Positions 31,833-53,158 of a stretch of DNA of 64,000 nucleotides are shown here, piece after piece (the stretch's first letter is position 1; each line of letters begins with the position of its first letter). Location: NCBI GenBank assembly GCA_965214265.1, contig CBDCBK010000010.1, forward strand, positions 537,369-601,368, read 5' to 3'. The position numbers and the translations under genes are program-made. The stretch comes from Acidimicrobiia bacterium. GTDB taxonomy: Bacteria; Actinomycetota; Acidimicrobiia; Spongiisociales; ZC4RG35. The notes under the pieces were generated by a model that was not told where the DNA came from, did not search any database, and saw only the letters and a program-made list of their open reading frames with translations.

Positions 31833-31874
31833 GCTTTCGGTAGCGATTGGCTAGTAGGTAAATAGAGATGCTCC

Positions 31875-31917: not shown

Positions 31918-31959
31918 GGCCTGTAGGTAAGGACCGCGAGGGCGAGGAAGAGAGATACA

Positions 31960-32910: not shown

Positions 32911-32923
32911 GCAAGGAGGAACT

Positions 32924-34920: not shown

Positions 34921-35010
34921 GGCCAGCGCCGCGGAATCAGCGTTCGCGGTTGGGTGCCGCGTCGGGATTGACCATCCTGGTTTTTCCCTGCATGTGAGGT
35001 TGCCGGCCCG

Positions 35011-35916
35011 GTGCTGACCGGCATCGTCTTCGGGTTTATCACGGCGGTGACGCTGGGGATCAACCTTCTGCTCACTGCCGTGGTGGCCCGGCGCTTCGGC
35101 GTGCTGCGCTCCACTACCGCCACTCTGAGCCTGGCCCTCTTGGTGATGGTCGCCTGGGCACTCCTCATCGACGTGCCGTTCGAAATCACCACTGACCAAC
35201 TTGTATTACTGGCCTTCTTGGGCTCCTGTGCCGGCGGAGCGTTCCTGTGCGGCTACACGGCCCTCCGACTCGGTCCGATCTCGGTGGTGAGTCCGATCGG
35301 CGCTCTGGGGGGCGCCATGACGGTGGTCTTCTCATTCTGGTTGCTGGGGGAAAGACCCGGCGCGGTGCAGTGGGCGGGAATACCGATCGCCGTACTGGGA
35401 GCGGTATTGGCATCCGTGGTGATCAAGCGCGGAGTCAAGATTCGACTGGTCACCTGGGGGCCGGTCTTCGCCATGATCGGCGTGTTTGTGGGATCGCTCT
35501 CCAACGCCGGCCTGAAGATCCCCATCAGGGATGGACTCGACTCCAACCTGACCGTCATCACCCAGCGGGTCTACACGGTGGCTTACGTCGCTCTGGTGTT
35601 GGTGATTGTCACCCGGGTGACAGAACAGCGTCGCCGAAGGGGAGACCCCCGGTACGCGGGGAGCCACCCGGTGAAGATTACCTGGAAAACAGGATGGCTG
35701 CTGGGCGTGGTGGGAGTGATCGACGCCGTCTCCTTCATATCATTCGGATACGGTTTGGCGTATGCTCCAGCCTGGCTGATCGGGATCATCTCCCAAAGCG
35801 GACGGATAATAGCCGTGATCGGCGGGGTGATATTCTTCAAAGAACGACTTCAATCCCTGCAGTGGACAGGCATAGCCCTGGTAACGGTCGGCGTGGCCAT
35901 GTCCGTCGCCGGCTAG
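35011..35916 (+). CDS. EamA/DMT-superfamily transporter (10 TM), paralog 1
   Basis: Two EamA halves. GTG start. Preceded by an overlapping 7-codon uORF at 34994..35017. Confidence 0.8.
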   Translation: MLTGIVFGFITAVTLGINLLLTAVVARRFGVLRSTTATLSLALLVMVAWALLIDVPFEITTDQLVLLAFLGSCAGGAFLCGYTALRLGPISVVSPIGALGGAMTVVFSFWLLGERPGAVQWAGIPIAVLGAVLASVVIKRGVKIRLVTWGPVFAMIGVFVGSLSNAGLKIPIRDGLDSNLTVITQRVYTVAYVALVLVIVTRVTEQRRRRGDPRYAGSHPVKITWKTGWLLGVVGVIDAVSFISFGYGLAYAPAWLIGIISQSGRIIAVIGGVIFFKERLQSLQWTGIALVTVGVAMSVAG

Positions 35917-36147
35917 GACCGCTACCACAAAGAGGGCGAACGCTATTCCGTTCTTCCTCTTCGGGGTCCCCTCTCCTCTATGACGACCCGCGCCCCGACC
36001 ACTGCTGTTGGAAAGTTGTTATCGACGAGCTTCCTCACCCCTGGAGAGGAAGCAGCGGGTTTGCGATCCAAAAAATAATGCCCTATTGGTAACAGAACGC
36101 CAAGAGTTGAGTATATTTGAGGTTCAAGCGAGCGGAAGGAAAACAAA

Positions 36148-37937
36148 ATGAGAAAACTGAAATTAGCCATTGCCTTGATGGCTGTCTTGGCGTTGTTGGC
36201 TGCGGCCTGCGGCGGCGACGACGGCGCAGAGGATACGGCTGCTGCGGACGCGGCGGCTGCTCAGGCTGCTGCGGACGCGGCGGCTGCTCAGGCTGCTGCG
36301 GACACGGCTGAGGCTGCTGCTGCTGAGGCGGCTGCTGAGGCTGCTGCGGCGCAGGCCGAGTTGGAAACCGCGCAGGCCGAGTTGGAAGCTACCCGCGCTG
36401 CTGCTGCGGCCGGTGATGCGGACGCGCAGGCGATGTTGGAGGCTGCTGAGGCCGAGGCTGCCGCTCAAGCTGAGGCTGCTGCCATGGCTGAAGAGGCTGC
36501 CGAAGAGGCTGCCATGACAGCCGCAGACGCCCAGAAGGCACTGGCAGAGTCGATGATGGTGGATGCCCCCGGATCCGGGAACTCGAAGTGGCTATGGGTA
36601 TAGGTTTCTGTTGCGCCGACTTTGCCTATTGGCAGATTCCCTTGGAATTGGACTGGTATGACGAATTGGGTATAACCATCGTCCCCAATACGCCTACTTA
36701 TTGGTATCTCACCAATAGCACCGAGACCAATGCCAAGTTGCAGCGTCAAGAGCTTCACATGGCCAATGGCTGGGTGCCCTCACTGTTCGTAGCTCTGGAG
36801 ACCTTCGCTCAGGAGATTCCAGTGATTCACTTCGCGGATATCTTTATCGGCTATGCGGTCCTGGTATCGCCTGACAGCGATTCGAAGACTGCCCTGGAGT
36901 TCATGGAGGAAGGGATGTCCTTCTCCGAGGCGGCCACGGCGGCCGTGGAGCAGTTGGTTGGCGAGGATATCTACATCACGCCGGGTAGCACTACACAGGC
37001 CCAGTACGCGAACGCGTTCTTCGCCTACCTGCCCGAGTGGTGGGAGGATGTGCAGGAAGACATTCCCGTAATTGACGAGGAAGGCAACCCCTTGGTGTTG
37101 CTGGGCCGCGATGGCCAGCCACTCCTGGATGATGACGGCAACGTTCAGCCGATTCGCATTACGACCAACGACTGGCGCAATTACTCCACTCCGAAGTACG
37201 TCGAGGACCCCATTATCGTGGAGCTTTCGGCTGTTCCGGGCCGGATCGATTACGCCATGCCCTTCCAGGCTCCAACCCTGGTGCAGATGATTCGTAACGG
37301 CTGGGATCCGCTGATCAACTTCGCGATGATGTTCGAGCACGACGCGTTCTCCCAGCAGACGGGCATCGCCAGCTCCACCACAGGCGGCACCGGCCTGATT
37401 GCCAACCGCGAGTGGGTGGAGGCGAACAAGGACGCGGTCTACCGGATACTCTCCGTTGCCCACCGGACCTTCGCTTTCCTCGATGATCCCGAGACCCAGC
37501 GAATTGGGTGGGAGATTGAGGCCAATCTCATCAACGAGAAGCGCCTGCTGAGCATGGAGCCCGAGGACATCGGAGTCATATGGGAACAGATCGACCCCTC
37601 CTTTAACTGGGAGGACCAAGAGGCGCTTTGGGACTTGAGCCTGCCCAGCTACCACCCAGAGACGGTGTTCAGGAACCAGGTCGAGGAGCGTAAGGCCAAG
37701 GGAGAGTTGTCTGCGACCTATGACACGCAGGCAGGGCTCGAGAAGTTCTTGTTGGCCCAGGAGCTCTATTACGACATGAAGGGCATGCAGGAACGTTCCG
37801 ACGCTCTCTTCGCCACGGCTGAGGGATTGGATCTTTCCGATAGCCAGGCCGCTTTGGTGGCACAGGCCCGCCACTGGTACGACATCTATAACTTCTACGA
37901 CGCTGAGCGCTTCTTGGAGGCTGCCCTTATTGGGTAA
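36148..37937 (+). pseudogene. ABC substrate-binding lipoprotein, copy 2, disrupted by a 1-bp deletion (~36570) between linker and binding domain
   Basis: It is split into ORFs 36148..36603 and 36588..37937 in different frames. Alignment with copy 1 (ccccgaggtccgggaagccgaggttgctatgggt versus ccccggatccgggaactcgaagtggctatgggt) shows a single missing base. The 1790-bp length is not divisible by 3. Confidence 0.65.
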
Positions 37938-37977
37938 GCTTTCGGTAGCGATTGGCTAGTAGGTAAAAGAGAAGCTC

Positions 37978-38017
37978 CGAGCGCGGGGCAGGACGGGTTA
38001 TCGTCCTGCCCCGCGCT
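37978..38017 (+). terminator. GC-rich hairpin (copy-2 counterpart of the intra-operon attenuator)
   Basis: gcgcggggcaggacg-ggttat-cgtcctgccccgcgc. The stem is identical and the loop differs. Confidence 0.55.
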
Positions 38018-38062
38018 TCGGCCTGATAGGTAAGGACCGCGAGGGCGAGGAAGAGAGATACA

Positions 38063-39013
38063 GTGACCACCACAAGCACCGATGTTCTTGATGTGAGAGC
38101 GGCGGCGCACCGCGCTAGACGGCGAAGCAAGATTGCCTATAGCATCTATCTGGTCGTCGGGTTAATGCTGTTTTTGCTGATTTGGCAGTTGATCGCCTCG
38201 CCTTTTTCGCCCCTTTTCTATCTCATACCGCCGCCCATTGATGCCGTCAGGCACTTCGGGGAGAACCTGTTTTTCAGTCAGCGGATGTTGGAGCGGTATG
38301 TTCATGCTTGTCCGGATCTGTTGGACGAGTTGGAGTTGACGGGGGGAAGGATGTTCGATCTTCCCGATTACTGTTTTGGGTATATTCTGCATTTGGTGCG
38401 GACTACCCGCAATATCATGATCGCAGTTACGCTGGGGACGGTGGTTGGTTTGTCGGTGGGGCTGAGCAGTTTGGTTTTCCCGAAGATCGCGGATGTGGTG
38501 ACGCCGATTGCTGGTTTTTTTGGGACTACCCCGATTTTCATAGCGGCGCCTTTTTTCGTGATCTGGTTCGGGATCGAGTATCCCTTGATGACCACCGTCG
38601 GGGTGGTTGTTTTCTACACCACCCTTCTCATGTATTTCTTTAGCCGCCGGGCGGCGGAGAATATACCGGTGGGGATCATTGAGTCAGCCCTCACCCTGGG
38701 GGGAGACCGCCGTACTATTTTCCGGTGGGTGTATTTGCCGGGGACGATACCCGAGATCGCGGGAGGCTTTCGTATCGCGTTGGCCGGCGCCTGGGGACTG
38801 GGTACGCTGGTGGAGGTGCTGGGACCTCAGATGGGAGGAGGATTTCTTATTCGTATGTGGAGCTTTGCGATGGGCCTTTTGGAGGGGCCGGCCGCGGTGG
38901 TTTCACTGATTCTTTTCTTCGGTGTGTTGGCTGTGGTAGTCGACGGTATCTTGGTGCTGTTTATCCGTTTCGTCACCAAGTGGTCCGAGGCCGGTCGCCG
39001 GCTGGGTTTGTAG
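38063..39013 (+). CDS. ABC transporter permease (NitT/TauT), copy 2 (~97% aa identity to copy 1)
   Basis: Near-identical to 31960..32910 except for N-terminal residues. Confidence 0.85.
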   Translation: MTTTSTDVLDVRAAAHRARRRSKIAYSIYLVVGLMLFLLIWQLIASPFSPLFYLIPPPIDAVRHFGENLFFSQRMLERYVHACPDLLDELELTGGRMFDLPDYCFGYILHLVRTTRNIMIAVTLGTVVGLSVGLSSLVFPKIADVVTPIAGFFGTTPIFIAAPFFVIWFGIEYPLMTTVGVVVFYTTLLMYFFSRRAAENIPVGIIESALTLGGDRRTIFRWVYLPGTIPEIAGGFRIALAGAWGLGTLVEVLGPQMGGGFLIRMWSFAMGLLEGPAAVVSLILFFGVLAVVVDGILVLFIRFVTKWSEAGRRLGL

Positions 39014-39026
39014 GCAAGGAGGAACT

Positions 39027-39806
39027 ATGTCGTCAACTGTTGTGAGCTTTGAGAATCTGTGGTGTGTGTTCGAGCACCGATCCGGGCAATTGGTGCATGC
39101 CCTTGAGGATGTCAATTTCCATGTCGATCCCGGCGAGTTTGTGTGTGTCGTGGGGAGGTCTGGGCACGGTAAGACCACTCTGCTGAGGGTGCTGGCCGGG
39201 CTTCAGCCTCCTACCGCCGGTGAGGTGAAGCTGGGCGACACCCCGGTGACGGGGCCGGGTAGCGACCGGGCCATGGTTTTTCAGCAGGACACGGTGTTTC
39301 CTTGGTTGCATGTCCGCGAGAACGTTGAATTCGGTCTCAGGGCCAACAAGCTTCCCGAGGACGAGCGGAACGAGATCACCAATTACTGGTTGTCGGCGGT
39401 GGGACTGGAGGAGTTCGCTGACTCTTGGCCGCGGGAGCTTTCTGGGGGCATGAGAAAGCGGGTGGCTCTGGCGGCGGCGATGGCGGTGGGCTCGGATGTT
39501 GTGCTCATGGATGAGCCTTTTGGGTCTGTTGACTATTTCACGCGCCGTAATCTTCATGAGGTTCTTTTGAATTTGTGGTTTGAGACCAAGAAGACCATCT
39601 TTTTTGTCACCCATGACATTGAGGAGGCGCTGATTCTTGCTGACCGGGTGATCCTCTTGGCTGAGGGCAAGTTGGTGGACGACATCGCGGTTTCTCTCCC
39701 TCGTCCTCGTAACGAGGATGTCCGGGCCACCCCTGAGGCGGTGGGTGTGTTCAAGCTGATCTTGGCGCATCTGGGTATCACCGAGGAGGAGGCGACGAAG
39801 GTTTGA
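39027..39806 (+). CDS. ABC transporter ATP-binding protein (NitT/TauT), copy 2 (100% aa identity to copy 1)
   Basis: Identical 259-aa translation. Only a few synonymous nucleotide differences. Confidence 0.9.
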   Translation: MSSTVVSFENLWCVFEHRSGQLVHALEDVNFHVDPGEFVCVVGRSGHGKTTLLRVLAGLQPPTAGEVKLGDTPVTGPGSDRAMVFQQDTVFPWLHVRENVEFGLRANKLPEDERNEITNYWLSAVGLEEFADSWPRELSGGMRKRVALAAAMAVGSDVVLMDEPFGSVDYFTRRNLHEVLLNLWFETKKTIFFVTHDIEEALILADRVILLAEGKLVDDIAVSLPRPRNEDVRATPEAVGVFKLILAHLGITEEEATKV

Positions 39807-41023
39807 ACCAGCCTGCCCTCTTCCGAAGCCTTTATTGGATTGGATGGCTGATCTGGGTCGTCTTCCTGGCTCCTTGGTTGCTCATTCAACTGCCTGAAAG
39901 CCTTCCCTTCGTTTCCTGGACATATAGCGATGGTGTGATCAACGTCACGTGGTCGATCCTTGTTTCTTGGCTGGTTTTGTTGCTGGTCTGGCCGGTTGTG
40001 TTCCGCCCGAGTGGGGTCAAGAACCGCCTGGTCAAGATGGGACAGGGGATAGCGGCGGGGCCGCCGATGCTGTTGGCCGGTATGCGCCGCAGCCCGCTCT
40101 TCTTCGTCTCCTGGGTGGTGTTGCTGGCGGCGTGGCAACTGGGGTCTTATTTGGCGCCTCCGGGAGCCCTTGAGCACCCCCTGGTTCCCGGATGGGACTA
40201 CGTGTTCGGTGAGACCTTCTTCAGAATGTCCGGGGACTGGAGCGTCCGCGGGTTTGACCTTGAGTTTGTGGTCCTCGATGTCACGGGACTAGCGCCCCTT
40301 CCCATCTATGGCGGGGAGGCGACTTGGCCGGCCGTGTTCCTCGCCATCGCTTTCCACTCCGGCACGACCCTTTTCCGGCTGATGTGTGGCATGGTGGTCG
40401 GTATGACCCTCGGTCTCCTGACCGGTCTGGCCATTCCCTATTGGCCGCCGCTGCGCAAGTCCGCTTGGGCGCCCATGAACTTTCTGCGGATGATCCCCCT
40501 CCTGGCGGCGATTCCCTGGTTGCAGTTTGCCGTGGGCTCCACCCTCTTTGGTATCACCATCTATATTGCATTCGGGGTGTGGACGACGATGGTGGTGGCA
40601 ACTATGAACTCGGTGGCCAACGTGCCTGACCGGTACATCGAGAGCGCCCGTACCCTGGGCGCGTCCCGGCCGTGGACCTATTACAAGGTGATAGTGCCGG
40701 GGTCGATTCCCGAGTTGCGCACCGCCATGTTGCTCTCCATGGGAGGGAGCTGGTCGCTGGCCATTGCCGCCGAGTTCCTGGGTTTCCCCACCGGGCTGGG
40801 ATATATGGCCAACGTGGCGGTGCAGGAAACCAACACCGCCCGGCTGGTGATAGTGGCGTTCATTGTGGCTTTTTATTCTCTCACGACCTTCTACTTGCTC
40901 AACGAAGGATTCAAAAAGGCGGTTAGTTGGATGCCACAGCGCGCCACCGGGAAGACGGATATCAGCAGGGTGGCCGGGGCGGCCGGAGCGGGGGGCCGCG
41001 CGGAAACCCTAGAGGGCGGATAA
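39803..41023 (+). CDS. second ABC permease, copy 2 (~92% aa identity)
   Basis: Co-linear with 33700..34920. Confidence 0.8.
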   Translation: MNQPALFRSLYWIGWLIWVVFLAPWLLIQLPESLPFVSWTYSDGVINVTWSILVSWLVLLLVWPVVFRPSGVKNRLVKMGQGIAAGPPMLLAGMRRSPLFFVSWVVLLAAWQLGSYLAPPGALEHPLVPGWDYVFGETFFRMSGDWSVRGFDLEFVVLDVTGLAPLPIYGGEATWPAVFLAIAFHSGTTLFRLMCGMVVGMTLGLLTGLAIPYWPPLRKSAWAPMNFLRMIPLLAAIPWLQFAVGSTLFGITIYIAFGVWTTMVVATMNSVANVPDRYIESARTLGASRPWTYYKVIVPGSIPELRTAMLLSMGGSWSLAIAAEFLGFPTGLGYMANVAVQETNTARLVIVAFIVAFYSLTTFYLLNEGFKKAVSWMPQRATGKTDISRVAGAAGAGGRAETLEGG

Positions 41024-41113
41024 GGCCAGCGCCGCGGAATCAGCGTTCGCGGTTGGGTGCCGCGTCGGGATTGACCATCCTGGTTTTTCCCTGCATATGA
41101 AGCTGTCAACGCG

Positions 41114-42010
41114 GTGCTGACCGGCATCGTCTTCGGGTTTATCACGGCGGTGACGCTGGGGATCAACCGTCTGCTCACTGCAGTGGTGGCCCGGCGCTTC
41201 GGCGTGCTGCGCTCCGCTGCCACCACTCTGAGCCTGGCCCTCTTGGTGATGGTCATCTGGGCAATCCTCATCGACGTGCCGGTCGAAATGACCACTGACC
41301 AACTTGTTTTACTGGCCTTCTTGGGCTCCTGCGTCGGCGGGTCCTTTCTGGGCGGCTACACGGCCCTCCGACTCGGTCCGATCTCGGTGGTGACTCCGAT
41401 CGGCGCTCTGGGGGGCGCCATGACGGTGATCTACGCATTCTGGTTGCTGGGGGAAAGACCCGGCGCGGTGCAGTGGGCGGGAATACCGATCGCCGTACTG
41501 GGAGCGGTATTGGCATCCGTGGTGATCAAGCGCGGAGTCAAAATTCGACTGGTCACCTGGGGGCCGGCCTTCGCCATGATCGGCGTGTTTGTGGGATCGC
41601 TCTCCAACGCCGGCCTGAAGATCCCCATCAGGGATGGACTCGACTCCAACCTGACCGTCATCACCCAGCGGGTCTTCACGGTGGCCTTCGTCGCTCTGGT
41701 GTTGGTGATTGTCTCCCGGGTGACAGAACGGCGTCGACGAACGGGAGATGGTCCCCCGTATCCGGTGAGGATTACCTGGAGGACAGGATGGCTGCTGGGC
41801 GTGGTGGGAGTGATCGACGGCGTCTCCTTTATATCATTCGGATACGGTTTGGCGTATGCTCCGGCCTGGCTGATCGGGATCATCTCCCAAAGCGGACGGG
41901 TGATAGCCGTGATCGGCGGGGTGATATTCTTCAAAGAACGACTCCACCACCTGCAGTGGGCAGGCATAGCCCTGATAACGGTCGGTGTGGCCATGTCCGT
42001 CGTCGGCTAG
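41114..42010 (+). CDS. EamA/DMT transporter, paralog 2
   Basis: GTG start overlapped by the uORF ATGAAGCTGTCAACGCGGTGCTGA (41097..41120). Confidence 0.8.
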   Translation: MLTGIVFGFITAVTLGINRLLTAVVARRFGVLRSAATTLSLALLVMVIWAILIDVPVEMTTDQLVLLAFLGSCVGGSFLGGYTALRLGPISVVTPIGALGGAMTVIYAFWLLGERPGAVQWAGIPIAVLGAVLASVVIKRGVKIRLVTWGPAFAMIGVFVGSLSNAGLKIPIRDGLDSNLTVITQRVFTVAFVALVLVIVSRVTERRRRTGDGPPYPVRITWRTGWLLGVVGVIDGVSFISFGYGLAYAPAWLIGIISQSGRVIAVIGGVIFFKERLHHLQWAGIALITVGVAMSVVG

Positions 42011-42029
42011 GATCGCCGCCCGAGGAGGT

Positions 42030-42246
42030 ACTCGTTGAGGGATTCAAGAAGGTCGTTGGTCGGATGCCACAGTGCACGGGAAAGTGAACAGATGGCAGCA
42101 GGGTGGCCGCGGCGGAAGGAGCAGGAGGCCGCGGTGAAACTCTCGACGACGGATAGGGCCTCGGCCGCGGAATCGGCGTTCGCGGTCGAGTGGCCAATCG
42201 GGATTAGTCAGCCTGGCTTTTCCCTGTATGTGAAGCTGTCAACTAG
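42030..42246 (+). pseudogene. relic of permease-2 3' end plus EamA leader (junction of an extra [permease-tail+EamA] sub-duplication)
   Basis: ctcgttgagggattcaagaaggtcgttggtcggatgccacag resembles LLNEGFKKAVSWMPQ. Frame not maintained. Confidence 0.6.
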
Positions 42247-43152
42247 GTGTTGACCGGCATCATCTTCGGGTTCATCACCGCGGTGACGCTGGGGATCAAC
42301 AGCCTGCTCACTGCTGTGGTGGTACGGCGTTTCGGCGTGCTGCGCTCTGTCTCCGTTACTGTGACTCTGGCTTGCTTCTTGATGATGGCCTGGGCGGCGC
42401 TGATCGGTGTGCGAGTCGAGATGAATGCCGACCACCTGATCCTGCTGGTCCTGTTGGGCTCCTGTGTCGGCGGGTCCTTTCTGTGCGGTTACATGGCTCT
42501 CCGGGTCGGTCCGATCTCGGTGGTGAGTCCGATCGGCGCTCTGGGGGGCGCCATGACGGTGATCTACGCATTCTGGTTGCTGGGGGAAAGACCCGGCGCG
42601 GTGCAGTGGGCGGGGATACCGATCGCCGTTCTGGGAGCGGTGTTGGCATCCGTGGTGATCAAGCGGGGGACCAAGATTCGACTGGTCACTTTGGGGCCGG
42701 TCTTTGCCTTGACCGGCGTGCTGGTGGGATCGATCTCCAACGCCGGCCTGAAGATCCCCATAAGGGATGGGGTGGATTCCAACGTGACCGTCATCACCCA
42801 ACGGGTCTTCACGGTGGCTGTCATCCTCTTGGTGTTTGTGATCTTCTCCAGGGTGACAGAACAACGACGACGAAGGGGAGATCCCCGGTACGAGGGGAGC
42901 CACCCGGTGAAGATCACCTGGCGGACGGGATGGCTGCTGGGTTTGGTGGGACTGATCGACGGTGCCTCCTTCATATCCTTCGGATATGCTCTGGCGCATG
43001 CACCTGTCTGGCTGATCTCGATTATCTCCCAAACCGGACGGGTTATAGCCGTGATCGGCGGGGTGATGTTCTTCAACGAACGACTCCACAGCCTGCAGTG
43101 GACAGGCATAGCTCTGATATGCGTTGGGGTGGTGATGTCCATCGTCGGTTAG
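42247..43152 (+). CDS. EamA/DMT transporter, paralog 3
   Basis: ~75-80% identical to paralogs 1 and 2. uORF GTGAAGCTGTCAACTAGGTGTTGA at 42230..42253. Confidence 0.8.
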   Translation: MLTGIIFGFITAVTLGINSLLTAVVVRRFGVLRSVSVTVTLACFLMMAWAALIGVRVEMNADHLILLVLLGSCVGGSFLCGYMALRVGPISVVSPIGALGGAMTVIYAFWLLGERPGAVQWAGIPIAVLGAVLASVVIKRGTKIRLVTLGPVFALTGVLVGSISNAGLKIPIRDGVDSNVTVITQRVFTVAVILLVFVIFSRVTEQRRRRGDPRYEGSHPVKITWRTGWLLGLVGLIDGASFISFGYALAHAPVWLISIISQTGRVIAVIGGVMFFNERLHSLQWTGIALICVGVVMSIVG

Positions 43153-43183
43153 CACTGCCGCTAGCCGTTGGTTATGAAGAGCT

Positions 43184-43300
43184 GTGAAAGAAATCGTGGG
43201 TGGAGGATTGATTCTTGTCCCACGGGGGTTCACATTGAAGATGTACCAAACACCGAGACGGTCTGTCTTGGCATCGTTCGGACTTCGTCAAGGGATCAAA
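43184..43300. repeat. conserved ~110-nt noncoding element, copy A (3' of EamA-3, 3' of truncated hydrolase)
   Basis: TGAAAgaAAtCG..GG.GGaTTGATTCT.GTC....GGGGGTTCAcA.TGAaGa....AAACACCGAGAcGGTCTG recurs at 47026..47120 and 50005..50130. No consistent reading frame. Confidence 0.6.
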
Positions 43301-43496
43301 CTGACCTCTTGCACGCCCTGTTCCGGGCTGGGCGGACGCGTGTTGGACCCGTGGCAAGGTGGTAGCGGGTCACTGCCGCTAGGCAGTGGGCTTGCCTGAG
43401 GGCCCGGCAGGGAAGTGGTTTTTTACGCCTTTCCGCGGTGATTGGCAACAGAACCCGCCTCCGTGGGCTGGGGCCAGAGCTGGGTGGAGCCGGTGC

Positions 43497-43901
43497 TCAG
43501 TTCTCGGGGAAGGTGTACTGGAATACCCCGCCGGTGCGGATCATCTCGGCGGCGATGGCGCCCACCAGTTCGGGATGGCGGGCGGCGGCCGAGATGATCA
43601 CCTGTCCCCCCATGCTTTGGCCCACCAGCACGGGCCGATTCAGTTCCAGTTGGCGGATGAGTGCGGCCACGTCATCGCCGTGTTGGGCCATGGTGTAGAT
43701 CTCATCGGGCTTGTCGCTTTCCCCGTGGCCGCGCAGATCGACCGCCACGCACCGGTGATTGGGGGAGAAGTACTTCTCCTGGAGGCCGAATCCTTCCCGA
43801 CTGCCGAAGCCCCCGTGGATGAAAATAATGGCCGGATCGCCGGAGCCTAATTCGTGGTACGCCATGCGGACGCCGTCGGGGTTAGTAATCCATTCAGTCA
43901 T
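43497..43901 (-). pseudogene. alpha/beta-hydrolase paralog with large in-frame internal deletion (N-terminal 116 aa fused to last 18 aa)
   Basis: MTEWITNPDGVRMAYHELGSGDPAIIFIHGGFG...GQSMGGQVIISAAARHPELVGAIA|AEMIRTGGVFQYTFPEN. The catalytic Asp/His region is missing. The breakpoint lies at the short repeat GAIA/DAIAAE. Confidence 0.75.
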
Positions 43902-44206: not shown

Positions 44207-45811
44207 TTGGTCGACAGCCGTCGGCCCGACCAGCAAGCGAACGGAAGGAAAGCGCAAACGAGGAAATTTATATCAGCTATTTCTCTGGTGGCTATCTTGG
44301 CGTTGTTGCCTGCGGCCTGCGGCGACGGCGCGGCGGATACGGCCGCGGCGGACGCGGCTGCTGCTCAGGACGAAGCCGCTGAGGCTGCTGCCACGGAAGC
44401 CGACGAGGCCCAGAAGGCTCTGGAAGGGTCGATGGTGGAGGCCCCCGACATTCGGGAAGCCGAGGTTGCGATGGGTTTTAACGCCTGTTGTGCCGATCTG
44501 GCTTTTTGGCAGATTCCCGTCGATTTGGGCTGGTGGGATGATTTGAATATCACCATCGTTCCCAATTCGCCCACCTATTACTATTTCGCCGCCGGCGCCG
44601 AGGCCATTGCCTGGTTGCGGCGCGGTGAAGGCGCCGTGGCCCCCGGGTGGGTGCCGGGACTGTTCGGGGCGTTGGAGACCTTTGCTCAGGAAGTCCCGCC
44701 GATTTTCTTCGCGGACATCTATGTCGGCTATGCGGTCCTGGTTGCGCCGGACAGCCCCTCCAAGACCGTGCTCGAGTTCGTGGAGGAAGGGATGTCTTTC
44801 CCGGAAGCCGCCAAGGCGGCCGTCCAGCAGTTGGTAGGGGCGGATATTTACATTTCGCCCAGCCCCCAGCAGGCTCAGTACATGGATGCGTTCTTCGCTT
44901 ATCTGCCCGAGTGGTGGGAGGCTTATCAGGAGGACATTGCCGCCTTGGACGAGGATGGCAACCCCTTGGTGTTGTTGGGCCGCGACGGCGAGCCACTTCT
45001 GGACGAGGACGGCAACGTTCAGCCGATTCGGATCACGACCAACGACTGGCGTAACTACGCCAACCCGCAGTACGTCCATGACCCCACGATCATGGAGCTT
45101 TCGGCTGTTCCGGGCCGGATCGAATACGCCATGCCTTATGGCGCTCCGACCCTGGTGCAGATGATGCGCAACGGTTGGGATCCGCTGATCAACTTCGGGA
45201 TGATGATCGACAACGATCCGTTCTCCCAGCAGACGGCGATCGCCAACTCCACTGTCGGCGGCATCGGCCTGCTGGCGAACCGCGAATGGGTTAATAACAA
45301 TAAGGACCTGGCCTACAGGGTGCTCTCTGCCGCCTATCGCACCTTTGAGTTCCTCGATGATCCCGAGACCCAGTACCAGGGGTGGGAGATCGAGGCCAAT
45401 CTCATCAACGAGAAGCGCCAGATGAGCATGGAGCCCGAGGACATCGGGACCATCTGGTCGACCATCGATCCCTCCTTTAACTGGGAGGAGCAGGCGGCGC
45501 TGTGGGACTCGAACCTCCCGAGCTACCACCCCGAGATAGTGTTCGCCACTCAGATCGAGAAGCTGAAGGCCAAGGGGGTGTTGTCCGAGGACTATGACAC
45601 GCAGGCCGGGCTGAAAGAGTTCTTGTTGGCCCAGGACCTCTACTATGAGATGAAGGAATTCGAGATGCGCTCCGACGCACTCTTCGAGAGGGCTTCGGGA
45701 AGGGATCTTTCCCCGGCCCAGGCTGCTCTAATCGCCCAAGCGCAGTTCCACTATGACATCTATAACTTCTATGACGCTCTCCGCTTCTTGGAGGCTGCCC
45801 TCATCGGGTAG
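44207..45811 (+). CDS. ABC substrate-binding lipoprotein, copy 3 (diverged; ATG replaced, probable TTG start; shorter linker)
   Basis: ...RKFISAISLVAILALLPAACGDG lipobox. The binding domain is ~75-80% identical to copies 1 and 2. The copy-1 ATG position reads ACG here. An in-frame TTG lies at 44207. Confidence 0.6.
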   Translation: MVDSRRPDQQANGRKAQTRKFISAISLVAILALLPAACGDGAADTAAADAAAAQDEAAEAAATEADEAQKALEGSMVEAPDIREAEVAMGFNACCADLAFWQIPVDLGWWDDLNITIVPNSPTYYYFAAGAEAIAWLRRGEGAVAPGWVPGLFGALETFAQEVPPIFFADIYVGYAVLVAPDSPSKTVLEFVEEGMSFPEAAKAAVQQLVGADIYISPSPQQAQYMDAFFAYLPEWWEAYQEDIAALDEDGNPLVLLGRDGEPLLDEDGNVQPIRITTNDWRNYANPQYVHDPTIMELSAVPGRIEYAMPYGAPTLVQMMRNGWDPLINFGMMIDNDPFSQQTAIANSTVGGIGLLANREWVNNNKDLAYRVLSAAYRTFEFLDDPETQYQGWEIEANLINEKRQMSMEPEDIGTIWSTIDPSFNWEEQAALWDSNLPSYHPEIVFATQIEKLKAKGVLSEDYDTQAGLKEFLLAQDLYYEMKEFEMRSDALFERASGRDLSPAQAALIAQAQFHYDIYNFYDALRFLEAALIG

Positions 45812-45851: not shown

Positions 45852-46025
45852 CAGATCACCGAGGAGGAGGCGACGAAAGCTTGAACCAACCAACCCTCTT
45901 TCGACGGCTGATTCAAAAAGGCCGTTAGCTGGATGCCCCAGCGCACCACCAGGGGGCCGGACATCGCCAAGGTGGCCGGGGCGGCGGGAACGGCAGGCCC
46001 CGTCGAAACCCTGGAAGACAGATAG
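45852..46025 (+). pseudogene. deletion scars: ATPase 3' end (…ITEEEATKA*) + permease-2 5' end (LNQPTLFRR) fused to permease-2 3' end (…AVSWMPQRTTRGPDIAKVAGAAGTAGPVETLED*)
   Basis: Direct alignment to 33660..33730 and 34800..34920. The bodies of permease-1, ATPase and permease-2 are absent from this third unit. Confidence 0.75.
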
Positions 46026-46099: not shown

Positions 46100-46996
46100 G
46101 TGCTGACCGGCGTCATCTTCGGGTTTATAACCGCGGTGACGCTAGGGATCAACAGTCTGCTCACTGCCGTAGTGGCGCGGCGCTTCGGCGTTCTGCGCTC
46201 TGCTGCCGCCACGCTGACGCTGGCTCTCTTGGTGATGGTCGCCTGGGCAATCCTCATCGACGTGCCGCTCGAGATGACCACCGACCACCTGATCCTCTTG
46301 ACCATTCTGGGCACCTGCGTCGGCGCCTCCTTTCTGGGCTCCTATACGGCCCTCCGACTGGGCCCGATCTCCGTGGTAACACCGATCGGCTCTCTGGGGA
46401 CCGCGATGACTGTGGTCTACTCCTTTTGGCTGCTGGGGGAAAGACCCGGCGCCTTGCAGTGGGCGGGAATACCGGTCGCCGTGCTGGGAGCAGTACTGGT
46501 ATCGCTTGTAATCAAACGCGGGACCAGGGTTCGACTGGTCACCTGGGGGCCGGTCTTCGCGTTGATCGGCGTATTCGTAGGATCGATCTCCAACGCCGGC
46601 CTGAAGATCCCCATCAGGGACGGAGTCGACTCCAACTTGACCGTAATCACCCAACGGGTCTTCACAGTGGCCTTCGTCCTGTTGGCGTTGGTGGTTTTCT
46701 CCCGGCTGGGATTTCGACGTCGGCGAGAGGGAGATGACCCTCAATCCCCGATGAGGATCACCTGGAAGACAGGATGGCTTTTGGGCCTGGTGGGACTGAT
46801 CGACGGCGTCTCTTTCATATCATTCGGATACGGATTGGCCTACGCACCGGCCTGGTTGATCGCGATCATCTCCCAAAGCGGAAAAGTGATAGCCGTAGTC
46901 GGCGGGGTGATCTTCTTCAAGGAACGACTCCACCGACTTCAGTGGGCCGGGGTGGGGTTGATAATGGTCGGCGTGATGATGTCCCTCGTCGGCTAA
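46100..46996 (+). CDS. EamA/DMT transporter, paralog 4
   Basis: uORF ATGAAGCTGTCCACGGGGTGCTGA (46083..46106) overlaps the GTG start. Confidence 0.8.
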   Translation: MLTGVIFGFITAVTLGINSLLTAVVARRFGVLRSAAATLTLALLVMVAWAILIDVPLEMTTDHLILLTILGTCVGASFLGSYTALRLGPISVVTPIGSLGTAMTVVYSFWLLGERPGALQWAGIPVAVLGAVLVSLVIKRGTRVRLVTWGPVFALIGVFVGSISNAGLKIPIRDGVDSNLTVITQRVFTVAFVLLALVVFSRLGFRRRREGDDPQSPMRITWKTGWLLGLVGLIDGVSFISFGYGLAYAPAWLIAIISQSGKVIAVVGGVIFFKERLHRLQWAGVGLIMVGVMMSLVG

Positions 46997-47025
46997 TACC
47001 GCCCTTTCCATCCGCGGTGGGAGGT

Positions 47026-47120
47026 CGTGAAAGGAACCGCATTGGGAGGGTTGATTCTGTCTCATGGAGGGTTCATAGTGATACGAGTCAAACACCGCAG
47101 CGGTCTGCTGTGGACCCGGA
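47026..47120. repeat. conserved ~110-nt noncoding element, copy B
   Basis: See 43184..43300. Confidence 0.55.
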
Positions 47121-47201: not shown

Positions 47202-48041
47202 TCAGTTCCCGGGAAAGGTGTATTGGAATACTCCACCGGTACGGATCATCTCGGCGGCGATGGCGTCGGCGTGTTCGATGAATCGGCGCAGCATGGCGTT
47301 GATCTGGTCCGGCACTACCTGGAGGGCTCCATGGCCAGCGCCGACCGGTTTGCCGATCACCACTTGGGGGCACAGTTCGCGGAGCAGGTCCAGGTCGATG
47401 CGCGGCTGACCGCAGTCGACATATAGATAAGGGCACTTGATGCTTGCCAGTATCGGCGCGGGATCGAAGGCGCTCAACCCGTGCCAGTCGCTGAGGATCA
47501 CGTGGTCGGGAACTTGGGCCAGCCGCTCGGCTGCTTTCTTGGCGCGGGTCGGGTCGTCGGTGGGCAGGTGGGAGGCGCTGAGAAACCCGACCAGCGTGTC
47601 CCGGAAGGGTAGGTCCTTTTGCATGAGGTGATCGAAGGGTCCGTGATGGTACGCGGTCCACCCGGGGAGGTTGCTGGGAGAGTCCAGGCTGGCGATCGCT
47701 CCCACCAGGTCGGGATGGCGGGCGGCGGCGGAGATGATCACCTGTCCTCCCATGCTCTGGCCGACCAGCACCGGCCGGTCCAGTTCCAGTTGGCGGATGA
47801 GTTCGGCCACGTCATCGCCGTGTTGTTCCATGGTGTAGAGCTGATCGGGTTTGTCGCTATCCCCGTGGCCGCGCAGATCGACCGCGATGCAGCGGTGATT
47901 TGGCGAGAAGTACTCCTCTTGGAGGCCGAATCCTTCCCGATTGCCGAAGCCGCCGTGGATAAGGATGATGGCCGGGTCGCCGGCACCCAGCTCGTGGTAG
48001 GCGATGCGGACGCCGTCGGGGGTGGTGATCCATTCGGTCAT
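47202..48041 (-). CDS. alpha/beta-fold hydrolase, tandem paralog 1
   Basis: IHGGFGNREGF (oxyanion region), GQSMGG (GxSxG nucleophile elbow) and GAGHG (catalytic His region). 279 aa. Confidence 0.8.
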   Translation of the reverse strand: MTEWITTPDGVRIAYHELGAGDPAIILIHGGFGNREGFGLQEEYFSPNHRCIAVDLRGHGDSDKPDQLYTMEQHGDDVAELIRQLELDRPVLVGQSMGGQVIISAAARHPDLVGAIASLDSPSNLPGWTAYHHGPFDHLMQKDLPFRDTLVGFLSASHLPTDDPTRAKKAAERLAQVPDHVILSDWHGLSAFDPAPILASIKCPYLYVDCGQPRIDLDLLRELCPQVVIGKPVGAGHGALQVVPDQINAMLRRFIEHADAIAAEMIRTGGVFQYTFPGN

Positions 48042-48122: not shown

Positions 48123-48965
48123 CTATAAATTCTCGGGGAATGTGTATTGGAAGACGCCGCCGGTGCGGATCATCTCGGCGGCGATGGCGTCGGCGTGTTC
48201 GATGAACCGCCGAAGCATGGCGTTGATCTGGTCCGGCACTACCCGGAGGGCCCCATGTCCGGCGCCGACCGGTTTGCCGACCACCACTTGGGGGCACAGC
48301 TCGCGGAGCAAGTCCAGATCGACGCGCGGCTGTCCGCAGTCGACGTACAGATAAGGGCACTTCACCCCAGCCAGTATCGGCGCGGGATCAAAGGCCATCA
48401 TCCCCTGCCAGCCGTTGAGGATCATACGGTCGTCAAGCCGGGCCAGCCGCGCCGCTGTGTTCTTGGCGCGGGTCGGGTCGTCGGTGGGCAGATGGGCGGC
48501 GCTGAGGAAGAGTTCCAGCGCCTTCCGGAAGTCTTGGTCCTTCCGCATGAGGTGATCAAAGGGTCCGTGATGGTAGGCGTGCCATCCGGGGAGGTTGCTG
48601 GGCGAGTCGAGGCTGGCGATGGCCCCCACCAGTTCGGGGTGGCGAGCGGCGGCCGAGATGATCACCTGTCCACCCATGCTTTGTCCCACGAGGACGGGCC
48701 GGTCCAGTTCCAGTTGGCGGATGAGTTCGGCCACGTCATCGCCGTGTTGTTCCATGGTGTAGAGCTCATCGGGCTTGTCGCTTTCGCCGTGGCCGCGCAG
48801 ATCGACCGCGATGCAGCGGTGATTTGGCGAGAAGTACTCCTCCTGGAGGCCGAAGCCTCCCCGATCGCCGAAGCCGCCGTGGATAAGGATGATGGCCGGA
48901 TCGCCTGCACCCAGCTCGTGATATGCAATGCGGACGCCGTCGGAGGTGGTGATCGATTCAGTCAT
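48123..48965 (-). CDS. alpha/beta-fold hydrolase, tandem paralog 2
   Basis: Same motifs. ~80% identical to paralog 1. Confidence 0.8.
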   Translation of the reverse strand: MTESITTSDGVRIAYHELGAGDPAIILIHGGFGDRGGFGLQEEYFSPNHRCIAVDLRGHGESDKPDELYTMEQHGDDVAELIRQLELDRPVLVGQSMGGQVIISAAARHPELVGAIASLDSPSNLPGWHAYHHGPFDHLMRKDQDFRKALELFLSAAHLPTDDPTRAKNTAARLARLDDRMILNGWQGMMAFDPAPILAGVKCPYLYVDCGQPRVDLDLLRELCPQVVVGKPVGAGHGALRVVPDQINAMLRRFIEHADAIAAEMIRTGGVFQYTFPENL

Positions 48966-49095: not shown

Positions 49096-49938
49096 TTATG
49101 TGGAGGGGAAGGTGTATTGGAATACCCCGCCGGTGCGGATCATCTCGGCGGCGATGGCGTCGGCGTGTTCGATGAATCGTCGTAGCATGGCGTTGACCTG
49201 GTCCGGCACGTCCTGGAGGGCCCGGTGTCCGGCGCCAACCGTTTTGCCGATCACCACCTGGGGGCACATCTCGCGGAGCAGATCCAGGTCGAGATCCGGC
49301 TGGCCGCAGTCGATGTAGAGGTAAGGACACTTCACCCCGCTCAGCGTGGGTGTTGGGTCGTAATCGGCCTTTCCCAGCCAAGTGTTGAGGATCAATTTGT
49401 CGGGTACTTCGGCGAGCCGCGCGGCCATGGTGCCCACCCGGGAGGGGTCGTCGGTAGGCAGATAGGCGGCTTTGAGGAACGTGTAGAGCGTCTCGCGGAT
49501 AGGGGGGCCGTCCTTGCTCATCAAGGGTTGGTAGGGACCGTGAAAGCGCTGGTGCCATCCGGGGATGTTGCTGGGCGAGTCCAGGCTGACGATCCCCCCC
49601 ACCAGTTCGGGGTGGCGGGCGGCGGCGGCGATCACCACCTGTCCGCCCATGCTCTGGCCCACCAGCACGGGCCGATTCAGCCCCAATTGGCGAATGAGCT
49701 CTGCTATGTCATCGCCGTGTTTGTCCATGAAGTAAGGCTCATCGGGCTTGTCGCTGTCGCCGTGGCCGCGCAGGTCGACCGACACGCACCGGTGATTGGG
49801 GGAGAAGTACTCCTCCTGGAAGCCGAATCCTCCCCGCTTGCCGTAAGCGCCGTGGATGAAGATGATGCCCGGGTCGCCGGCGCCCACCTCGTGGTAGGCG
49901 ATGCGCACCCCGTCGGAGGTGGTGATCCATTCAGTCAT
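49096..49938 (-). CDS. alpha/beta-fold hydrolase, tandem paralog 3
   Basis: Same motifs. ~65-70% identical to paralogs 1 and 2. Confidence 0.8.
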   Translation of the reverse strand: MTEWITTSDGVRIAYHEVGAGDPGIIFIHGAYGKRGGFGFQEEYFSPNHRCVSVDLRGHGDSDKPDEPYFMDKHGDDIAELIRQLGLNRPVLVGQSMGGQVVIAAAARHPELVGGIVSLDSPSNIPGWHQRFHGPYQPLMSKDGPPIRETLYTFLKAAYLPTDDPSRVGTMAARLAEVPDKLILNTWLGKADYDPTPTLSGVKCPYLYIDCGQPDLDLDLLREMCPQVVIGKTVGAGHRALQDVPDQVNAMLRRFIEHADAIAAEMIRTGGVFQYTFPST

Positions 49939-50004
49939 GTCACCTGAGCTTAGGGTATCCTGTGGCGGCGCGGTACTGACACTTGCAGTCGGTTCTATCA
50001 GAAG

Positions 50005-50130
50005 TTGTGAAACAATCCGTTGTTGGGGGGTTGATTCTGTCGTGGGGAGAGTCCATGCTTATATGCGCCGAACACCGAGATGGTTCGCCCAGGCGTCGAT
50101 TGGACCGCGTCGAGGGATCAGATGTCCTTA
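50005..50130. repeat. conserved ~110-nt noncoding element, copy C, with adjacent EamA 3'-end relic (gcagtcggtt)
   Basis: See 43184..43300. Its 3' half, g.cgtcgattggaccgcgtcgagggatcaga, matches copy A. Confidence 0.55.
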
Positions 50131-50285
50131 CCCAATAAGCCCTGTTGTGGCTGGACGGAGTTGTTCGACCATGGCGAGGTGGTGGTGGGGGAGGGCCCGG
50201 AAGGGACGCCAAATTTTCGCGACTTTTGGGTGTTGATCAGCGACTGCCGGTCGCCACTCCGAGTGGCGTTCAGCGCCGCCGGGTT

Positions 50286-51125
50286 TTATGTGGGTGGGAA
50301 GGTGTATTGGAACACTCCGCCGGTGCGGACCATTTCGGCGGCGATGCTATCGGCGTGTTGGATGAAGCGGTAGAGCATGGCGTTGATCTGGTCCGGCACG
50401 TCCTTGGTGGCCTGATGACCGGCGCCCACCGTTTTGCCGATCACCACCTGGGGGCAGAGCTCGCGGAGCAGATCGAAGTCGAGACCGGGTTGGCCGCAGT
50501 CGATGTAGAGATAGGGGCACTTCACTCCGGCCAACACCGGCGCCGGATCGAAGGCGCTCATTCCCTGCCAGCCGTTCACGATCACATGGCCGGGAACCTC
50601 AGCCAGCCACTCTGGCATTTCCCCAACCCGCGATGGGTCGTCGGTGGGCAGATAGGCAGCGCTGAGGAAGGTTTGTAGCGCCTCCCGGAAGGGGCCGTCC
50701 TTGGTCATCAGGTGGTCGAATGGACCATGAAAGCGCCGGTGCCATCCGGGGATGTTGCTGGGCGAGTCGAGGCTGGCGATTGCCCCTACCAGTTCGGGAT
50801 GGCGGGCGGCAGTGGAGATGACCACCTGTCCGCCCATGCTGTGACCAACCAGGATGGGCCGCCGTATTCCCAGATGGCGGAGCCATTCGGCAACCTCATC
50901 GGCGTATTTGTCCATGGTGTACAGTTCATCGGGCTTTTCGCTGTCGCCGTGGCCACGCAGGTCGATAGCCAGACACCGGTGATTGGGCGAGAAGTATTCC
51001 TCCTGGAATGTGAAACCAGTCCGGTTGCCGAAGCCGCCGTGGATGAAGACGATGGGCGGATCCCCGGTGCCCACCTGGTGGTAGGCGAGGCGGACGCCGT
51101 CGGAGGTAGTGAACCATTCAGTCAT
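50286..51125 (-). CDS. alpha/beta-fold hydrolase, tandem paralog 4
   Basis: GHSMGG variant of the nucleophile elbow. Same architecture. Confidence 0.8.
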   Translation of the reverse strand: MTEWFTTSDGVRLAYHQVGTGDPPIVFIHGGFGNRTGFTFQEEYFSPNHRCLAIDLRGHGDSEKPDELYTMDKYADEVAEWLRHLGIRRPILVGHSMGGQVVISTAARHPELVGAIASLDSPSNIPGWHRRFHGPFDHLMTKDGPFREALQTFLSAAYLPTDDPSRVGEMPEWLAEVPGHVIVNGWQGMSAFDPAPVLAGVKCPYLYIDCGQPGLDFDLLRELCPQVVIGKTVGAGHQATKDVPDQINAMLYRFIQHADSIAAEMVRTGGVFQYTFPPT

Positions 51126-51246: not shown

Positions 51247-52086
51247 TTATGTGGGTGGGAAGGTGTATTGGAATACTCCGCCGGTGCGGATCATTTCGGC
51301 GGCGATGGCGTCGGCGTGTTGGATGAATCGGCGGAGCATGGCGTTGATCTGATCAGGCACATCCCTGGTGGCCGCGTGACCGGAGCCCACCGTTTTGCCG
51401 ATCACCACCTGGGGGCACAACCCTCGGAGTAGATCGAGGTCCAGATACGGCTGGCCGCAGTCGATGTAGAGATAGGGGCATTTCACCTGGCCCAGCACCG
51501 GCGCCGGATCGAAGGAGCTCAATGCCCACCACTGTCTGACGATTACATGATCGGGAAATGCGGCCAGCCGCTCCCCGATCCCGGCGACCCGCGACGGGTC
51601 GTCGGTGGGCAGATAGGCGGCGCCGAGGAAGGTGCGCGCCGCTTCCCGGAAGGGACCGTCTCGGGTCATCAGGTGGTCGTAAGAACTACTAAATCGTTTC
51701 TGCCATCCGGGGATGTTGCTGGGCGAGTCGATGCTGGCGACCGCCCCAACCAGTTCGGGATGACGGGCAGCCACGGAGATAACCACCTGCCCGCCCATGC
51801 TGTGACCCACCAGGATGGGCCGCCGGAGACCAAGTTGGTGGATCAGCTCCGCCACGTCGTCGGCGTGTTTGGCCATCGAGTACACCTCGTCGGGCTTGTC
51901 GGTGTCGCCATTGCCGCGCAGGTCGACAGCCAAGCACCGGTGATGGGGCGAGAAGTACTCCTCCTGGAGAGCGGAACCTCCCCGATTGCCGTAAATGCCG
52001 TGGACGAAAACAATGGGCGGATCGCCAGCGCCAACCTGGTGGTAGGCGAGACGGATGCCGTCGCGGGTGGTGATCCATTCAGTCAT
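51247..52086 (-). CDS. alpha/beta-fold hydrolase, tandem paralog 5
   Basis: GHSMGG. It lies immediately downstream of asd on the same strand. Confidence 0.8.
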   Translation of the reverse strand: MTEWITTRDGIRLAYHQVGAGDPPIVFVHGIYGNRGGSALQEEYFSPHHRCLAVDLRGNGDTDKPDEVYSMAKHADDVAELIHQLGLRRPILVGHSMGGQVVISVAARHPELVGAVASIDSPSNIPGWQKRFSSSYDHLMTRDGPFREAARTFLGAAYLPTDDPSRVAGIGERLAAFPDHVIVRQWWALSSFDPAPVLGQVKCPYLYIDCGQPYLDLDLLRGLCPQVVIGKTVGSGHAATRDVPDQINAMLRRFIQHADAIAAEMIRTGGVFQYTFPPT

Positions 52087-52144: not shown

Positions 52145-53158
52145 TCAGAGGCTAAGTCGCTCAGCCAGTTGAACAGCGTTGAGCGCCGCGCCCTTGCGGA
52201 GGTTGTCGCCCACCGCCCACAAGTTGATCCCTCCGGGCATTCCTACCGTCTCCCGCACCCGGCCCACCAGGGTCCGGTCCCCCCCGGCGCTGTCCAGGGG
52301 AGTGGGCGGGATGTCCTCCCAGACCTCCACCCCGGGGGCGGTGGCCAGGACATCCAGCGCCTCGCTCCGGCCCAGCGGACGGTCGAACCACACCGAAGCG
52401 GCCAGGCCGTGGCCGACCATCACCGGCACCCTCACACAGGTAGGCTCCACGGCCAGCTCCGGGAGTTCGAGAATCTTGCGGGACTCGTTCACCAGCTTCC
52501 ACTCCTCGTCGGTATAGCCCTGCCCAGTCTCCGAGCCGGCCATGGGCAGCACATTGAAGCCGATGGGACGGCTGTAGACCTCGCCGCCCGGGTCGGTCCA
52601 TCTCCCTTGCGCCAAGCCGGATAGATCACCCCGGAAGTGATCTATCTGGTGGGAAAGCTCGGTCATCCCCTTCTGTCCCGAGCCTGAGACCGACTGATAG
52701 GAGGTGGTAACCATCGAGCGGAGCCCTGCGGCCCGGTGGAGAGGGGCGACTGCCATCATCAGCACCATGGTGGTGCAGTTGGGGTTGGCGACTATTCCTT
52801 GATGTGATCCCAGGGCATGGTCGTTCACATCCGCCACGACCAGCGGAACTGTGGGGTCCATCCGGAAACAGGACGAGTTGTCGATCACCACCGCCCCTGC
52901 GGCCACGAAGTGGGGGGCATAAGCCCGGGACCGGGAGGCCCCCGCCGAAAAGATCGCAATCTCGATTCCCTCCGGATCGGCCTCCTCCAGATCTTCCACC
53001 TCAACCTTGCCCCAGGTGGTGGAGATCTTCTGTCCGGCCGAGCGCGCCGAGGCCATAACCCGCAGTCGGCCGATGGGAAAATTCCGGTCGGCCAGGATAT
53101 CGAGCGCTGTCCGGCCCACCGCTCCGGTGGCGCCCACCAGGGCCAGGTTGACGCTCAT
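52145..53158 (-). CDS. asd: aspartate-semialdehyde dehydrogenase
   Basis: [11 protein letters not shown] (NADP site) and the active-site Cys in [12 protein letters not shown]. Confidence 0.9.

Follow-up and report, generated by a model that had tools for sequence, protein, structure and literature searches.

The window analysed here, the whole stretch of 64,000 nucleotides, carries beside five intact alpha/beta-hydrolase genes (H1 to H5) a truncated sixth copy, H6-delta, which is very probably a young pseudogene of the esterase-like paralog H6. The initial annotation regarded this ORF as a sixth hydrolase copy with an in-frame internal deletion between short repeats, a proposal borne out by the alignments with paralogs and orthologs and by the presence of a 10-bp repeat at the junction. 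The hydrolase features of the window are the following:

43497..43901, minus strand: H6-delta, truncated alpha/beta-hydrolase paralog and probable pseudogene, product of 134 aa in the ORF list of the 64-kb window (ORF, alignments, Pfam Abhydrolase_1, relaxed selection)
43551..43560, minus strand: deletion junction, sole remaining copy of CGCCATCGCC; the plus strand reads GGCGATGGCG (overlap of BLAST segments, ortholog alignment)
47202..48041, minus strand: H1, intact 279-aa hydrolase (ORF, alignment, Pfam, AlphaFold2 pLDDT 91.5)
48123..48965, minus strand: H2, intact 280-aa hydrolase, tandem duplicate of H1 (88% nucleotide identity to H1; tree)
49096..49938, minus strand: H3, intact 280-aa hydrolase (ORF, alignment, tree)
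50286..51125, minus strand: H4, intact 279-aa hydrolase (ORF, alignment, tree)
51247..52086, minus strand: H5, intact 279-aa hydrolase adjoining asd (52145..53158, minus strand) (ORF, alignment, tree)

H6-delta can be aligned with the five 279/280-aa paralogs only at both ends, that is, over residues 1-117 and the last 17 residues, and shows 88-89% amino acid identity to H1 and H2. Self-BLAST of the region resolved the gene into two H1-matching segments: 43462-43560, which matches the 3' end of H1 and 35 nt past the H1 stop, and 43551-43910, which matches the 5' part of H1 and H1 upstream bases. The two segments overlap by exactly 10 nt, and in the direct alignment of 43497..43901 with 47202..48041 only the two ends of H1 were matched, in agreement with the initial annotation.

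The comparison genomes were sponge- and coral-associated Acidimicrobiia MAGs, several of them labelled Candidatus Spongiisociaceae or Spongiisocius; a search for literature on Spongiisociaceae/Spongiisocius retrieved nothing relevant in the library covered. Two of them, L003 (2.73-Mb contig) and L004 (2.56 Mb), have the gene order of the window, are ~93-96% identical to it and carry intact 279-aa H6 orthologs between the lipoprotein gene and EamA-3 (L003:15329-16168 and L004:16329-17168). Compared with the intact ortholog, H6-delta keeps residues 1-117 and 263-279, and the alignment of the window with the H6 genes of L003/L004 shows one clean gap of 435 bp, corresponding to 145 codons. In the L003 gene CGCCATCGCC occurs at gene positions 342 and 777, bounding the block that is absent from the window, and the junction sequence of H6-delta is GGTGGGCGCCATCGCCGCCGAGATG. 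CGCCATCGCC is the longest exact direct repeat within the intact H6 gene, and in simulated random deletions of this gene a junction microhomology of at least 10 nt had P ~2e-5. The reading frame was preserved by accident, because both repeats encode Ala-Ile-Ala in the same phase. The microhomology initially described at the protein level as GAIA/AIAA corresponds on the DNA to the 10 bp of CGCCATCGCC, encoding the AIA; as this tripeptide is ambiguous at the join, the split first given as residues 1-116 plus the last 18 is equivalent to the one reported here. Both retained parts and both flanks are H6-like, with ~97% identity to the H6 of L003/L004 (at the 3' end 54/54 coding nt match the H6 orthologs, with ~97% identity downstream), and therefore the deletion was intragenic and not a crossover between paralogs.

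These observations show that the ancestor was an intact 279-aa gene at the H6 position, still present in sister genomes, from which a single 435-bp deletion took out everything between the two CGCCATCGCC copies, leaving one of them. As judged from the junction, which has the form typical of such events, the mechanism would have been replication slippage, that is, a RecA-independent short-homology deletion between direct repeats. The module formed by the lipoprotein, the NitT/TauT-type ABC genes and EamA convergent with the hydrolases was duplicated, its redundant parts being then shed piecemeal in different lineages.

Sister lineages differ in the H6 slot. In L005 (chromosome OZ253443.1) the entire H6 is missing through a 939-bp deletion equivalent to window 43211-44149, and several more distant relatives have no hydrolase in this position. 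The H6 locus is a birth-and-death locus, and the family repeatedly gains and loses copies. The deletion that removed H6 from L005 (at ~13962) has a junction microhomology of 1-3 nt. The main array of several other genomes contains a further class of hydrolase paralog (L005:8114-8947, L007:5501-6328, L009:10925-11758, L012:10923-11756, and L016:10927-11754), which the window, L003 and L004 lack, and the H1-class and H6-class genes of L007 appear to be in swapped positions. Between the window and L003/L004, the stretch at 43100-44200 is little diverged (H6 dS 0.03-0.04, spacer 1% divergent), whereas the neighbouring hydrolases (dS 0.11-0.33) and their spacers (6-15% divergent) lie well above these values; the low divergence may derive from recent recombination between strains.

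The tree of the hydrolases has the topology ((H4,H5),(H3,(H6,(H1,H2)))), H6 being the sister of H1 plus H2. Orthologs group by position, and therefore the six paralogs are older than the split of these genomes. H1 and H2 are a plain tandem duplication with a spacer of 81 bp. Against NCBIfam equivalogs (BioH, MenH, PcaD, haloalkane dehalogenase, intracellular PHA depolymerase, and RutD) the best scores were 59-75 bits versus cut-offs of 207-300 and above, the highest of them, 71-75 bits, facing cut-offs of 241-300.

Around H6-delta the window contains three transporter modules, the ABC parts of which are of the NitT/TauT type according to Pfam and NCBIfam:

30021..35922, plus strand: module A, with lipoprotein, permease, ATPase, permease and EamA-1 (91.8% identity over 5.9 kb to 36127-42016)
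36127..43152, plus strand: module B, with lipoprotein (frameshifted relative to L001), permease, ATPase, permease, EamA-2 and EamA-3 (self-BLAST, comparison with L001)
42247..43152, plus strand: EamA-3, 301 aa, convergent with H6-delta (Pfam EamA, 85 bits; orthologs in L003-L005)
44207..45811, plus strand: lipoprotein-like 534-aa protein of module C, presumed substrate-binding component (paralog of 30042..31832 and 36588..37937)
45855..45904, plus strand: relic of 50 bp from the module C junction between ATPase end and permease start (86-88% identical to both 33674-33723 and 39777-39826)
46100..46996, plus strand: EamA-4, convergent with H1 (Pfam EamA, 88 bits)

The module B segment at 36127-42016 is followed in order by EamA-3 and H6-delta, the convergence of which had been correctly recognized at the outset; module C consists of the lipoprotein gene and EamA-4 and is followed by H1-H5. 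The two EamA neighbours score 85-88 bits versus a Pfam cut-off of 28.2, with two matched stretches each, and for the 534-596-aa lipoproteins sequence searches of Pfam, NCBIfam and PDB returned nothing, even at E = 1-10. The loss of the ABC genes from module C was stepwise: L004 has a 405-aa permease (L004:13061-14278), L003 a 102-aa remnant (L003:13071-13379), and in the window the ABC traces are the 50-bp relic and the last ~190 bp of the permease (45910-46099) before EamA-4; L005 is like the window, with only the 50-bp junction relic and the permease 3' end. Across 40-odd loci the arrangement comprises a lipoprotein, two permeases, a NitT/TauT-type ATPase and EamA, facing 2-7 hydrolases. This pairing of a multi-copy esterase array with a NitT/TauT-type ABC importer and EamA, conserved across the bacterial family, points to a putative pathway of substrate uptake and hydrolysis.

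Some additional features of the modules were observed. At 36570 the window has one G fewer than L001, so that the module B lipoprotein is frameshifted (449-aa ORF at 36588..37937 vs 596 aa); this stems either from a sequencing error or from a second inactivation in the strain. Of the 14 differences from L001, nine lie within 360 bp (40798-41161) at the boundary between the permease end and the EamA-2 start, a cluster that suggests a gene-conversion tract from a paralogous module. The module A lipoprotein gene (30042-31832) is 84-89% identical at the nucleotide level to that of module C (44207-45811) and ~86% or less to that of module B (36588-37937) over the same stretch, and the tree groups this lipoprotein (S1) with the S3 class; the module A ABC genes and EamA are 92-96% identical to those of module B. 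On these identities module A looks chimeric.

It had been proposed that the ancestral repeating module was an EamA gene convergent with a hydrolase, and that the hydrolase array grew by repeated duplication of this module with loss of the EamA. The first part holds in so far as the EamA-3/H6 and EamA-4/H1 pairs are duplicates: homology is unbroken through the spacer (42041-43265 with 45910-47107, and 43462-43560 with 47168-47265), and the right spacer flanks are more similar than shuffles (p = 0.002-0.005). The two convergent pairs are true segmental duplicates of one another. The real unit is, however, larger and takes in the lipoprotein and ABC genes: the duplicated unit is lipoprotein/putative binding protein, permease, ATPase, permease and EamA, convergent with the hydrolase, and the ABC genes decayed in the second copy.

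Some 240 nt of the H3/H4 spacer recur in the spacers between EamA and hydrolase genes (nhmmer E = 1e-38 to 6e-53), the homology setting in 12-24 nt past the EamA stop. This common sequence is a dispersed intergenic element, copies of which were found at the following positions:

43173..43436, plus strand: complete copy in the EamA-3/H6 spacer (nhmmer E = 2e-60)
47017..47110, plus strand: partial copy, 5' 95 nt, in the EamA-4/H1 spacer (nhmmer E = 2e-18, model positions 3-97)
49996..50228, plus strand: complete copy in the H3/H4 spacer (nhmmer E = 7e-57; flanks not homologous to the EamA spacers)
L043:15203-15438 and L045:16338-16581: copies between dcd and the LigD primase-polymerase gene
L010:17148-17361: copy between an FtsX-type permease gene and a Band_7 gene
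L035:199-429: copy beside the murJ 3' end
L021:652-851 and 10884-11108: copies in L021, including one next to an oxidoreductase gene

At 47017..47110 the remainder of the element is missing through a deletion that, measured against L003, spans 128 bp (breakpoint 47108/47109; 1-3 nt microhomology). The element is present at convergent gene ends in many sponge-associated, Spongiisociaceae-type Acidimicrobiia genomes. Its layout comprises TTGAYT, 17-18 nt and CAYATT, a body of ~155-195 nt starting near CCAAACACC, and a GC hairpin followed by a T-run; the TTGAYT-17/18-CAYATT part looks like a putative promoter. Several identities were considered for it. Rfam gave no match at E <= 1 for the copies of the window and three other loci. 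RNAalifold predicted a 14-bp closing stem and one good hairpin for close copies; covariation is small once distant copies are included, and single-sequence MFE z-scores of +1.0 to +1.2 indicate folding no better than that of shuffles, both of which speak against a strongly structured RNA. A small ORF was likewise discarded, as codon periodicity is lacking and the copies do not conserve the candidate start codon.

The element may be an undescribed small RNA gene (family) or a MITE-like mobile element. A tentative further reading, which we consider rather unlikely, is that copies of such an element supplied homology or breakpoints for the rearrangement of the hydrolase, EamA and ABC genes, thereby yielding the H3/H4 junction and the H6 slot. 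Were this true, the truncated H6 would still be an ordinary pseudogene.

It is improbable that the array arose by repeated duplication of the EamA-hydrolase pair followed by EamA loss, with a relic left between H3 and H4. This scenario would agree with the homology of the two pairs through their spacers, with the ~240 nt that the H3/H4 spacer has in common with them in the same orientation towards the hydrolase stop, and with a tree that splits the array into an (H1, H2, H3) side and an (H4, H5) side. Against it, the common sequence is the dispersed element, also present at dcd/ligD, at the FtsX permease/Band_7 gene and beside murJ, and the flanks of the H3/H4 copy resemble neither the EamA spacers (p = 0.3-0.9) nor EamA 3' ends (p = 0.12-0.92). 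As the element is dispersed to unrelated sites, this copy cannot be read as the scar of a lost EamA, though it might still be one. The string gcagtcggtt, previously suggested as a relic of EamA 3' sequence at 49981..49990, was found at 49985..49994, just outside the 5' edge of the element, and the comparison of the left flank of the H3/H4 spacer with EamA 3' ends gave p values of 0.61 for the window and of 0.12-0.92 for seven relatives, a match at chance level that does not sustain the suggestion. Strings resembling 'GATGTCCC...GGC TAG', noticed by eye beside H3 in several H3/H4 spacers as a candidate EamA coding relic, were not better than shuffles in local alignment (p = 0.12-0.92), and the spacer as a relic of a whole EamA-hydrolase spacer was discarded, since its strong nhmmer matches are explained by the dispersed element and its flanks are unrelated. 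At the H3/H4 junction neither unbroken EamA-hydrolase homology nor an EamA remnant was detected, the dispersed ~240-nt element being all that is common. Furthermore, distant relatives with a single ABC/EamA module already hold 2-4 tandem hydrolases, which fall into H5-, H3- and H1-like classes. Because of these tandem arrays and the plain tandem duplication of H1/H2, with a gap of only 81 bp, and with a duplicated unit that takes in ABC genes, there is no support for an array that grew by EamA loss.

The consequences of the deletion were evaluated on an AlphaFold2 model of H1 built from a 45-sequence alignment (mean pLDDT 91.5), in which the following elements were delimited:

H1 residues 115-119: beta6
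H1 residues 128-200: helical cap
H1 residues 205-208: beta7
H1 residues 227-230: beta8
H1 residues 244-268: last helix

Mapped onto this model, the deletion removes part of beta6, the whole cap, beta7, beta8 and most of the last helix (helix F), so that the eight-stranded central sheet is left incomplete. The nucleophile elbow GQSMGG (residues 94-99) is present in all six copies, and Ser96, invariant in 45/45 family members, is kept in H6-delta. Residues 118-262 are missing, including His237, also invariant in 45/45 members, and the candidate acids D209 and D216; thus, the triad, present in H1-H5, is incomplete. Pfam Abhydrolase_1 scores H6-delta at 71.1 bits (cut-off 25.8) over profile positions 1-99 of 245 only, and H1 at 82.9 bits over positions 1-238. 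Judged on the H1 model, the product of H6-delta cannot form a catalytic triad or work as a hydrolase, because half of the sheet is gone along with the other triad residues.

The pattern of substitution is in line with loss of function. Omega values for H1-H5, window vs L003/L004 orthologs, were 0.05-0.23, and those for H6-delta vs intact H6 were 0.83-0.92. The window lineage accumulated six non-synonymous changes in H6 (T7N, I13M, N34S, E43K, E80A, and S114G) vs one synonymous change; T7 and E43 do not vary among the 15 intact copies, and E80 is kept in 13/15. The non-synonymous excess relative to the background ratio has a Fisher p = 0.007, with only seven substitutions. S114G restores a residue common in the paralogs and could be a reversion or the result of gene conversion. 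From these sequence comparisons we infer that H6-delta is probably non-functional and decaying. The start codon is kept, the ORF is still open and the upstream region is ~95% identical to that of intact orthologs, and the gene may still be transcribed and translated.

These last features, together with the 71 bits that Pfam still assigns to the N-terminal half, would also be expected if the 134-aa ORF were functional, as a member of an independent small family, a half-hydrolase with a regulatory or dominant-negative role, or a scaffold retaining only the serine. Such a role is very unlikely. In a search with the 134-aa product among 5.8 billion clusters only its own sequence covered 100% of the query, and the small-family explanation envisaged in the initial annotation thus found no counterpart. 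The remaining short relatives are fragments caused by frameshifts and end in out-of-frame tails, and therefore there is no independent small family, paralogs of the hydrolase family having been inactivated repeatedly. Moreover, H6-delta lacks the catalytic His, the acid and half of the fold, it evolves with an omega of ~0.9 and changes at invariant residues, and sister lineages have either the full H6 gene or have lost it completely. Members P0122, P0123, P0124, P0129, P0106, and P0110 of the family, encoded in other metagenome contigs, are shortened by frameshifts near residues 110-170.

Still less credible is that H6-delta is a chimera generated by unequal crossing-over between different paralogs, for which six similar genes in the same orientation would offer many substrates and in favour of which one can cite the 98% identity of the final 55 nt to the H3 3' end. 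H6 orthologs are, however, the best match for the 5' part as well as for the 3' part and the two flanks, and an unequal exchange of H6 with the array would have cost the window the lipoprotein gene and EamA-4, both of which are present. That an error of assembly or sequencing collapsed the gene across short repeats hardly merits consideration. The region is rich in paralogs, and the 1-bp indel vs L001 at 36570 shows some base-level errors or polymorphisms. However, the identical 134-aa ORF and junction recur in three contigs from different metagenome samples (two of these contigs measuring 0.7 Mb and 2.6 Mb), and across 20.4 kb L001 shares 99.93% identity with the window, with 0/14 differences inside the ORF, which makes an artefact unlikely. 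Besides, an assembly would not collapse on a repeat as short as 10 bp, and lineage-specific substitutions go along with the deletion.

The deletion in H6 is an ordinary, textbook phenomenon, with unusually clean comparative support. It provides a dated example in which the same gene is intact, internally deleted or absent in sister genomes ~94% identical, and these states show the shedding of redundant paralogs from an expanded family in uncultured sponge-associated Acidimicrobiia. Annotations should mark the 134-aa ORF as a pseudogene rather than list it as the sixth hydrolase. Of more interest than the pseudogene are the transporter/hydrolase pathway and the dispersed element. Elsewhere in the window, and unrelated to H6, approximately ten tandem-like repeat units of 111 bp occur at 8599-10062 inside a 1219-aa ORF (7260..10919, minus strand), and a short-period repeat tract of the GGTTGTGGTTGGTGG type is present at 11343-11652.

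The full-length paralogs resemble known small esterases, perhydrolases and lactonases, namely the Pseudomonas fluorescens aryl esterase (1va4/8pi1), the Thermogutta esterase (4uhc), Est816 (5egn) and the enol-lactonase 2xua, in their fold (TM 0.76-0.80), the G-x-S-x-G elbow, the conserved His and the helical cap. They differ from the nearest solved structures in that identity is only 20-27% and in an extra conserved C-terminal tail, AAEMIRTGGVFQYTFP; the truncated H6-delta, unlike all these structures, lacks everything after beta6.

Deletion between short direct repeats by slippage has been described for E. coli lacI and in plasmid systems. As in those deletions, the loss in H6 is bounded by an exact direct repeat, 10 bp long and the longest in the gene, one copy is retained, and a few hundred bp were removed. 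In contrast to lacI and the plasmid systems, the H6 event is read from the junction sequence alone, and its frame was kept only because an identical tripeptide is encoded, in phase, by both repeats. At two further deletions of this locus the junction microhomology is only 1-3 nt, unlike the 10 bp of H6.

Birth-and-death evolution of tandem paralog arrays in host-associated bacteria is a general concept, with which the hydrolase array agrees in that orthologs group by position, copy number varies between 2 and 7 among genomes, one copy is intact, partly deleted or absent in sister lineages, and frameshifted copies exist elsewhere. Unlike generic arrays of this kind, it is tied to a duplicated module of a NitT/TauT-type ABC importer and EamA.
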